In this document: one piece after another, positions 55,201 through 58,200 of the stretch | Position numbering within the stretch: position 1 is the first letter of the stretch | Layout: each line of letters starts with the position of its first letter | Source: Chrysomallon squamiferum | Taxonomy: Eukaryota; Animalia; Mollusca | DNA: 64,000 nt | Assembly (NCBI GenBank): GCA_012295275.1 | Contig: CM022668.1 | Span: 868,001-932,000, forward strand | Direction of reading: 5' to 3' | Notes under the pieces: model-generated | What the model saw: the letters and a program-made list of their open reading frames with translations, nothing else | Told to the model about the DNA's origin: nothing | Database searches by the model: none | Translations under genes and position numbers: made by a program

Positions 55201-58200
55201 GTTTCTTCTCCTAGTTTGATTTATAATGGTTAATTATAATAATACCTCACTTTAAAATAATTCTGTAATTAAGAAATTTAACAACAAATTTTGTTTATAT
55301 ATATAAAATGTTAATGGAAAATAGTGACTGTATCATTTTTTTGTGCCCTTTATAATTATTTCCAACCAAGGTTTATAAAAAAAAATATGTCCAGTGTTAA
55401 AAAAAAAAGAAAAATGGAAGAGAAAAGGAAAATGGCCAACTAACTTCAACAACAGACAAAAACTTATTTATTTATTATTTCTTTGGTCTATTTCTGAAAG
55501 GAAATCCTCAACCTGAGGTGAAGTGGTTCAAATCAGGAGACACAGTTAAACCAACAGAGCGTATCACATTAACAACAGCAGAAGACACTTACATTCTAGA
55601 GATCAGACAGGCTGGAGTTGACGATAGTGGAACATACACATTAACAGCTCACAATTCTGAAGGGACAATATTCAGTGATGTTCAAGTATTTGTGGAGCTG
55701 GAGGAACCGGGATCTGCTGCAGCTTGTGGTGATGTTGGGTAGGAATAAAGTTATGTTTTTGCAGAATTATTATTTTTTAATCTGGTATCTTATATGATGA
55801 TATTATATCTTGTAGCTGTTAGATTGTATGTGATCACCACTTTGAATAATATAGCACTTACTTTGACTCAGAGAAATTTTGATTTTATTAACTGATGAAA
55901 ATTGTGTTTATCAGCATCACCAAATTACATTGTATTAAAGTTATATTATTATACTGAATGCCAAAATAAAAACAGTGATTTGTCCTTTTTGAAATAATTT
56001 TTCTTAAATTATTTTGTTCAACACACACAGGGTATTTAAATTTGATCTTTCTAGACTGATATTATGCAGTACCCTGGCAGTTTGAAAACTGCAGTGTTTG
56101 GACATCAGGCTTTCAGTGTTGAAACTGGTGTATCTATCTATATATTTGTCTGATATATGTTTATTATCCACTCCAGTGCAACTGTTTCTCTCAGCCCTCC
56201 AGAGTTTGTTGTTAAGCCAGAAGATACCACAGTGGCTGAGTTTGAAGAGGTCAAACTAATCTGCTCTGTCAAAGGTGAGTTAGTTATCAATCATGCTATA
56301 GTTATCATGGAAATAAATTATTTTAAATATTTCTTTTAAGCTTCAAGAACATTTTTAATATTAGAATTGATTTACAATTGTACAAATATAGATAAATACA
56401 TGAAAATAGACACATCATATAGATAAACAGACAGTCAGGCAGACAGACAAATAGATAGGCTTTGCAGACTGTTTATGATTGGATGGATATTATGTAAAGT
56501 GATTAATAAATTTAGCAGTAATAAGAAGGATAGACAATTAAATAAATATACAGGTAGATAGACAATATAGAGAAATGTATGGATGAACAGACAGATAAGT
56601 AGACAGACATAAAGAATGGATGACAGGACAGATAGGAAATATAAACACAGATAATATGCTGCAACTATCCACTAATTAATTTTACTCAGTAGAAAAATAT
56701 GTTAATTTTAAAAATAAAATTGTTTTAAGGTACACCTGAGGTGATATGGTCAAAAGAAGGTGTGAAACTTCACAGTGACAGTCATGTACGTGTGTATGAG
56801 TCTGACGGGTGTCATTACCTGGAGATTCCTTGTGCCTCCATTCTCGACTCTGGAGAGTATCAGTGCACCGCTGTCAATGACCAAGGAAATGTCTCCTGCC
56901 ATCTTGTTCTTAGAGTTGAAGGTTTGATTTTTATTATAACTAACCAAATTTAGTCAATCTAGATGTGTATGGTACAAAGAATAATTAAGATGATGTGTAT
57001 AGGTTATTTACATCACTGTAAAAGTGTTAGTAAATTAATATTTCTACAAAATCTTTTCATTATTAATAAAGAAATGTTTCTATAAAATGTTGTGTTTATT
57101 AAAGAAATTTTTAATTAATGAATATTTTTAATGTAAAAGAACCTTGAGTGTGAGGAAATATCTGTATACAAATTCCTCAGTGTTAATAAAGGAACAGTTC
57201 AGTAAAATTTCCTGAGATTAATTAACTGATATTTCTATAAAATCTCCTATATTCTCTTTATAAAAGAATATTTCTGTTCTCAGTGTTTTATAAAAGAATA
57301 TTTCTGTTCTCAGTGTTTTATAAAAGAATATTTCTGTTCTCAGTGTTTTATAAAGGAATATTTCTATATACATAATATTCTCAATTTTTTTTATAAAGAA
57401 CATTTTTTGTGTGGATATTCTCAGTTTTTTATCAAGGAATATTTTCATATAGTGATCTGTTTTAAAAAATATGTTCAGTTAAATAGTTTTGATAGAAATC
57501 CTCTGTGTTTGATCAAGAATGGTTCAAAGATAAGTGGTCTGTGTCTGCTAAGGAATGCTTCTATGAAACGTTCTTCTTTCAGCGGATTCCAGTGGCCTGT
57601 CAGCAGGAGAAGAACAAAGAACAGTTCTGTCACTGCAGGCGTCAGAACGTTCTGACACTGACGTTAGTGCCACAGTGCGATATATGAAGCTTGTGGCTGC
57701 CATGGCAGCATTCTCACTTGTAGCATTTGGCATTAACAAAGCTGTGCAGCATTTCAAATGAAAACAAAATTTGCATGATATGCTTATGAAAGTTGTTTTA
57801 ATACAAGCATGTTGCTGATCTTTCACTGTTTGTGTTAACTGAAACTGTTACATTTTTGGCATGTTTACACAGGGTAACCAGAAATATTCACTGGGCATTA
57901 TAACCACTGATTTCTGAATTTTCACTAAACTGATTTTAAATTACTTATTACAGCATTATAAAAACTAAAGTCTTGTATATAAAATAACACAACTACTGCC
58001 AATTTCAAATAAAATCAGTTACATGTGAACCTATTTTTTTTTTTTTTTTTTTATAAAGAAGCAATAACATCATTTCACAAGAGTATGAACTAACATTGTT
58101 ATTCTGTTACATAATATCAGTTAACTTACATGTTGGTATATTTGTATTATTATTTTTTGTATGGTTAGCATAATAATGATACCTTCATTTTCTGGGCTTT

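Follow-up and report, generated by a model that had tools for sequence, protein, structure and literature searches.

The window, that is, the entire 64-kb stretch of DNA analysed here, is AT-rich eukaryotic DNA that contains a multi-exon gene (Table 1; all coordinates are window positions) for which Pfam detects three I-set immunoglobulin (Ig) domains flanking a 974-aa acidic spacer (D+E 24%, no Pfam family match), followed by two SH3 domains. The abalone and oyster RefSeq models open with residues identical to those encoded at ATG 49294, and the first Ig domain (Ig1) shows 76%, 59% and 60% identity to the abalone, oyster and Owenia proteins, respectively (Ig1 searches gave one each out of 13 and 2 candidates). 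The domain order of the Owenia protein is the same as in this gene, Ig-spacer-Ig-Ig-SH3-SH3, and continues with RhoGEF-PH-Ig; the oyster orthologue (P0112) includes RhoGEF, Ig and Fn3 arrays, and then two Pkinase stretches. The DH-PH region of the gene would lie beyond the end of the window; the Owenia and oyster proteins, both collinear with the gene, possess this region. A search with the second SH3 domain produced 99 proteins, among which ten long ones were named, including vertebrate obscurins, an UNC-89-like crinoid protein and the Owenia protein. Taken together, the shared start residues, the Ig1 identity, the domain order and the oyster kinases mark the gene, as judged by identity and domain order, as an obscurin/UNC-89 orthologue, probably of a gastropod. 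The first-pass annotation, made from the sequence alone, had cast the long form as an SH3 signalling scaffold; the SH3 domains are present, but this description is too narrow because the orthologues add RhoGEF-PH, Ig, Fn3 and two kinases.

Elsewhere in the window, there are exons of an M1 aminopeptidase (26002-30250, plus strand; the C-terminus is ERAP1-like according to Pfam) and a minus-strand gene of several exons that encodes a ubiquitin-like domain (~37000-41100). The latter may be a NUB1-like gene; its promoter appears to be divergent and shared with a candidate obscurin first exon near 41560-41649. At 54595-55089 lies an intronic repeat, probably a transposon remnant, in which a frame encodes a FLYWCH zinc finger (E 1e-11) and of which many variant copies are transcribed.

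Table 1 Exons and associated features of the obscurin/UNC-89-like gene
Feature	Position	Strand	Evidence and remarks
Ig1 exon (I-set), coding part	49294..49555	+	ATG start; acceptor 49272; Pfam E 4e-22
3-kb exon: acidic low-complexity spacer and first half of Ig2	50102..53101	+	open frame
Ig2 second-half exon	55501..55738	+	Pfam I-set; RNA joints
Ig3 first-part exon	56177..56274	+	RNA joints: 3' in 4/4 runs, 5' in at least 3/4
Ig3 second-part exon	56730..56921	+	Pfam I-set; RNA joints in 4/4 runs
Composite exon, shared part (linker; phase 1 to phase 0)	57583..57662	+	RNA splicing
Read-through coding extension, 32 codons and stop	57663..57761	+	RNA in 4/4 runs; coding-like composition
Apolar core of tail (predicted tail anchor)	57690-57734	+	sequence
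Short-form 3' UTR	57762..58031	+	AATAAA 58008; TGTA 57974; probable cleavage ~58030
T19 run, which may serve the poly(A) site as U-rich downstream element	58034..58052	+	sequence; role inferred
Alternative exon spliced to SH3 exon, candidate internal first exon	60207..60328	+	GT..AG joint in 1/4 runs
First SH3 exon, long-form acceptor	61267..61416	+	weak Pfam SH3_2, E 0.04; RNA cover in 4/4 runs
Further long-form exons	62617-62698, 63156-63268, 63738-63894	+	joined frame open

Splicing and read-through of the exon at 57583

The acceptor at 57583 is in phase with the Ig3 exon, as had been noticed from the letters alone, with phase 1 on entry and phase 0 on exit after 57662. When the exon is spliced onward, the frame that starts at ATG 49294 stays open for 1457 aa, up to the last exon within the window; conceptual translation with this exon skipped runs into a stop at aa 1277, and the exon is therefore required for the long form. 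When the donor is read through, the frame ends at TGA 57759-57761 and specifies a protein of 1322 aa with zero internal stops. The size of about 1320 aa and the Ig-spacer-Ig-Ig layout expected for this short form thus agree with the translation and with the three Pfam I-set matches, and the other elements singled out beforehand, namely the open read-through frame, its 15-residue uncharged core with Lys on either side and the AATAAA at 58008, are all there.

Five public runs contain this stretch: one is DNA (X5), and four are RNA (X1 to X4), all from a single study, with libraries labelled metatranscriptomic and of unknown selection; these runs were analysed as assembled contigs. The joint between the Ig3 exon and 57583 is found in all four, and in all four, the RNA also continues past the 57662 donor. 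A single spliced contig spans the whole tail and the stop in at least two of the four runs (reaching 57999 in X2 and 57947 in X3); in X1, the read-through is covered by a contig at 57634-58025, and in X4, by two pieces up to 58000. The splice 57662>61267 was detected in two runs, X1 and X2, in each of which the loose 5' end on the SH3 exon matches 57634-57662, a direct demonstration of this joint. Hence the same exon is both spliced onward and read through within X1 and within X2, and the upstream contig of X1 (depth 40.5) halts at 57663, the point where the two paths diverge. On the SH3 exon, the X3 contig has its start within the exon, and in X4 the upstream partner is the alternative exon at 60207; for both of these runs, read-through is the sole assembled continuation among the contigs listed. 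Contig depths of the read-through and spliced forms are 16.5 and 17.2 in X1, and 5.9 and 4.2 in X2, which, given that contig depth is a rough measure with a single value per contig, indicates only that neither form is present in trace amounts. The upstream intron bins (57070-57564) have zero depth in all four RNA runs. The proposal of two isoforms that arise by splicing or read-through is borne out at the RNA level, and we regard the switch as firmly established within this one study.

An alternative donor at 57674 (GTGCGA), which had also been put forward, was not seen in the RNA of the four runs. A weak donor at 57662 was considered as well and abandoned: it has 6 of 9 U1 matches, and the other true donors of the gene score 5-9. 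Elsewhere in the gene, RNA contigs join the 3' end of the 3-kb exon to the exon that follows (as a loose end), the second SH3 domain lies in exon 63738-63894 (SH3_2, E 2e-5), and the joint into 62617 is present in 4/4 RNA runs.

Several further features of the transcripts deserve mention. The X4 exon at 60207-60328 has a perfect donor, stops in or near the frame upon translation and no open in-frame start; the contig begins at 60207, and this exon is probably a first exon inside the gene, located downstream of the poly(A) site. As a first exon, it would give a product of the SH3/RhoGEF side without the Ig-spacer half, and the first in-frame Met is residue 57 after 61267. Another contig, of 1349 nt, from X2 (one among those listed) crosses the Ig2 donor into 55739-55786 (plus strand), where TAG 55740 and AATAAA 55744 point to another early end, located after Ig2 and lacking a hydrophobic tail. 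Differences between the RNA and the assembly are silent at 55571 and 57644, and change Ser to Gly in Ig3 at 56780 (3/4 runs); in X4, a single base at 57677 separates two contigs, a gap that may reflect a third-codon-position variant inside the tail. In at least three of the four runs, a contig has foreign letters ahead of 57761; there is no acceptor at this position, these letters match nothing else in the window, and a short match by chance is the probable cause.

The short form probably ends at a poly(A) site near 58030, as suggested by the signals and by contig ends at 57947, 57999, 58000 and 58025, just before or at the AATAAA, with the T19 run behind. The AATAAA is so frequent in the window (2.8 per kb) that, on its own, it carries no evidence, and a poly(A) tail would be invisible because 58026-58064 was skipped as a repeat. 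We infer this 3' end rather than observe it given the skipped repeat, a T run that could break assembly, and RNA cover that starts again over 58220-59040, with a depth of 10 in X1 and as small pieces in X2-X4. This cover past the proximal poly(A) signal could come from a longer 3' UTR, or from nascent or antisense RNA.

The tail as a predicted membrane anchor

The tail contains a 15-residue core (GRAVY 2.39) with Lys ahead of it and, behind it, 8 residues that include two Lys and no acidic residue; the tail charge is +2. According to a hydropathy scan, this is the only hydrophobic segment of the 1322 aa (best 19-mer 1.81, next 0.98), and windows of 19-23 residues over the tail, with two Lys included, have GRAVY of 1.81-1.41. 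Pfam produced no match for the tail.

Hydrophobic ends are common when AT-rich introns are read through. Read-through of the donor at 53101 of the same gene also yields a hydrophobic end (T 0.55), and such ends were found in 5 of 40 exon-sized database ORFs. As a chance null, 17,309 GT-by-phase sites in the window were evaluated, with 5043 microsatellite bases masked and with thresholds fitted to the observed tail: a loosely tail-like end occurred at 334 sites (1.9%) and one under a tighter rule at 106, and the strict rule with basic flanks retained 27 (6 ORFs; 0.16%), none of which (0/27) reached a GC content of 0.40. The GC count of the tail is 44/99, compared with 20-33 following nine other donors of the gene (p 6e-5; one of the nine, 63269, was placed one base off), and the UTR is lower as well (78/270, p 0.006); the best GC change point, 57750, is close to the stop rather than to the donor. 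The GC content by codon position is 0.56/0.38/0.41 in the tail and 0.60/0.38/0.41 in the Ig3 exon, and the T fraction is 0.29 in the tail versus 0.42 in the intron. Six residues of the core are Ala or Gly, compared with at most three in any of the window's 67 remaining stop-terminal hydrophobic cores. Without being a test of selection, this composition argues for a coding history of the tail. Judging by these sequence features, the best reading is that the tail of the short form is a functional membrane anchor, to which we assign a probability of roughly 0.55.

With regard to the organelle, the available text of a study of tail anchors gives the mean tail charge of mitochondrial proteins as 1.12, that of shared mitochondrial/peroxisomal ones as 2.5 and that of ER proteins as 0.21, with yeast ER anchors above GRAVY 1.75 and a value of 2.4 considered highly hydrophobic and ER-favouring (PMC5450235). 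By these rules, which were derived from mammals and yeast, the charge of +2 and the long-window GRAVY place the tail nearer to the mitochondrial or shared mitochondrial/peroxisomal classes than to the ER, and the core GRAVY leans toward the ER, with 15 residues being short for a bilayer. On balance, mitochondria appear slightly preferable to ER/SR as the predicted location.

Alternative readings and the search in relatives

The tail was searched for in several protein and contig collections. A comparison with 122 collected proteins, 7 crinoid isoforms and 2 partial Owenia ones among them, gave a best E value of 0.42; a weak search among proteins of 105-2000 aa scored 0 of 93 candidates; scans of metagenome contigs confirmed 0 of 221 stretches for Ig3 and 0 of 597 for the tail; and an atlas search with the tail gave a single match (0.76), below lead level. 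A tail-like end was absent from the oyster cluster members checked (15 of 40, 11 of them named) and from the orthologue isoforms among the 122 proteins. The negatives for orthologue isoforms, which pertain to proteins, depend on annotation, and the low-quality abalone model breaks off in Ig2, so that it is incapable of showing a tail.

The failure to find an orthologous tail in the proteins and metagenome contigs searched is compatible with a possible, if doubtful, explanation, namely, that the read-through RNA is a truncation device that splits the Ig-spacer half from the SH3-RhoGEF-kinase half, with the tail being incidental or a degradation signal of the BAG6 type. Non-coding read-through tends to yield hydrophobic C-termini, which BAG6 directs to degradation or to membranes, according to the available text of a preprint (bioRxiv 2022.07.20.500724), and the locus seems modular, with the apparent internal first exon at 60207 and, perhaps, the early end after Ig2. 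However, the BAG6 mechanism relies on U-rich codons, whereas the tail is not rich in T (0.29) and is based on Ala and Gly; furthermore, the level of the read-through RNA is high compared with that of the spliced form, which speaks against this explanation.

The core of the tail is short and Ala-rich, the final 11 residues are amphipathic (moment 1.4-1.7), and AlphaFold, run on the single sequence and uninformative in this case, returns one long helix (residues 5-58). These features could fit a selected helix that stays soluble, without crossing a membrane, and serves to bind a protein partner or to self-associate; we consider this unlikely because the core itself is non-amphipathic (moment 0.25-0.45), apolar on all faces, flanked by Lys and terminal, which is the layout of a tail anchor. 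Finally, nascent or intron-retained long-form RNA, with the short protein never made, would be in line with the library type, the unseen poly(A) and the renewed cover downstream, but is the least probable of these readings given that 59970-61243 is free of intron cover beyond the X4 alternative exon and two 19-23-nt matches, that other introns have depths of 0-3 in X1, where the tail has 16.5, and that in X3 the tail and the upstream exons are on one unbranched contig.

In the reading that we favour, splicing of the exon at 57662 to the SH3 exon gives the long obscurin, and read-through to the stop, with likely polyadenylation near 58030 after cleavage at the AATAAA/U-rich site, gives the 1322-aa Ig-spacer-Ig-Ig protein, the last 23 residues of which are predicted to form a tail anchor, with the mitochondrial outer membrane as the likeliest site. 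The tail would insert post-translationally, with the Ig domains facing the cytosol, and these domains might bind the myofibril or the cytoskeleton across the long disordered spacer; by such binding, the short form would be a direct tether of the organelle, in place of the small ankyrin on which vertebrate obscurin relies.

Relation to known obscurins and isoform switches

Behind one exon of the IgM heavy chain gene, a composite terminal exon, splicing from a 5' splice site competes with polyadenylation at an intronic site, and read-through gives the secreted form. The parallel with IgM that the first-pass annotation had drawn is apt with respect to the competing RNA forms and the RNA mechanism; the outcome is reversed because here read-through adds a hydrophobic end, to a protein that would be cytosolic, without a signal peptide. 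The mechanism of the switch is of a known type; neither its use in obscurin nor a membrane-anchored obscurin was found in the literature searched (listed titles and abstract openings, mostly of non-subscription papers).

The gene resembles known members of the obscurin/UNC-89 family in its I-set Ig domains, its SH3 domains, which in the Owenia and oyster orthologues precede RhoGEF-PH, the two kinases of the oyster orthologue and the existence of multiple isoforms; C. elegans UNC-89 has at least 8 forms, produced from three promoters and by splicing, and vertebrate obscurin A contacts the SR via small ankyrin (PMC4865318, available text). Obscurin RhoGEF regions bind lipids, and loss of obscurin and Obsl1 disturbs mitochondria (PMC11995854, available text). 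Obscurins link myofibrils with the SR and with mitochondria; in the available text of a 2026 review (PMC12812942), the links described are indirect, isoform roles are called unresolved, and the strings 'transmembrane' and 'mollus' each occur 0 times. Thus, the known forms, as described in these sources, use ankyrins or the lipid-binding RhoGEF region, whereas here the N-terminal half would carry its own predicted anchor, with all signalling domains lost.

Two other proteins offer partial parallels, as far as the available text of the respective papers goes. Plectin 1b is likewise a cytolinker in which an isoform-specific exon provides anchoring to the mitochondrial outer membrane (PMC2426950), but its signal-anchor is N-terminal, comes from an alternative first exon and leaves the whole protein intact, in contrast to the C-terminal, read-through and truncating arrangement here. 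In SLMAP, a protein of muscle, the tail anchors TA1 and TA2 arise by alternative splicing, and TA2, less hydrophobic and basic-flanked, goes to mitochondria (PMC2712456); SLMAP, which we liken to the present case by description alone, picks between two anchors, whereas here the choice would be between an anchor and none.

The most specific version of our proposal, that a molluscan obscurin, at levels similar to those of the long form, is an integral mitochondrial outer-membrane protein, switched by intronic polyadenylation, in which three Ig domains and an acidic spacer of ~970 residues tether mitochondria to the myofibril, is tentative. Such an end is missing from the gene models of relatives that were examined, and other genomes may therefore harbour one that has gone unnoticed. 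If the proposal is true, this kinase-free obscurin isoform would, through the anchor that it carries, act directly as a tether, and the proportion of tether to RhoGEF/kinase scaffold would depend on a single choice at the RNA level.
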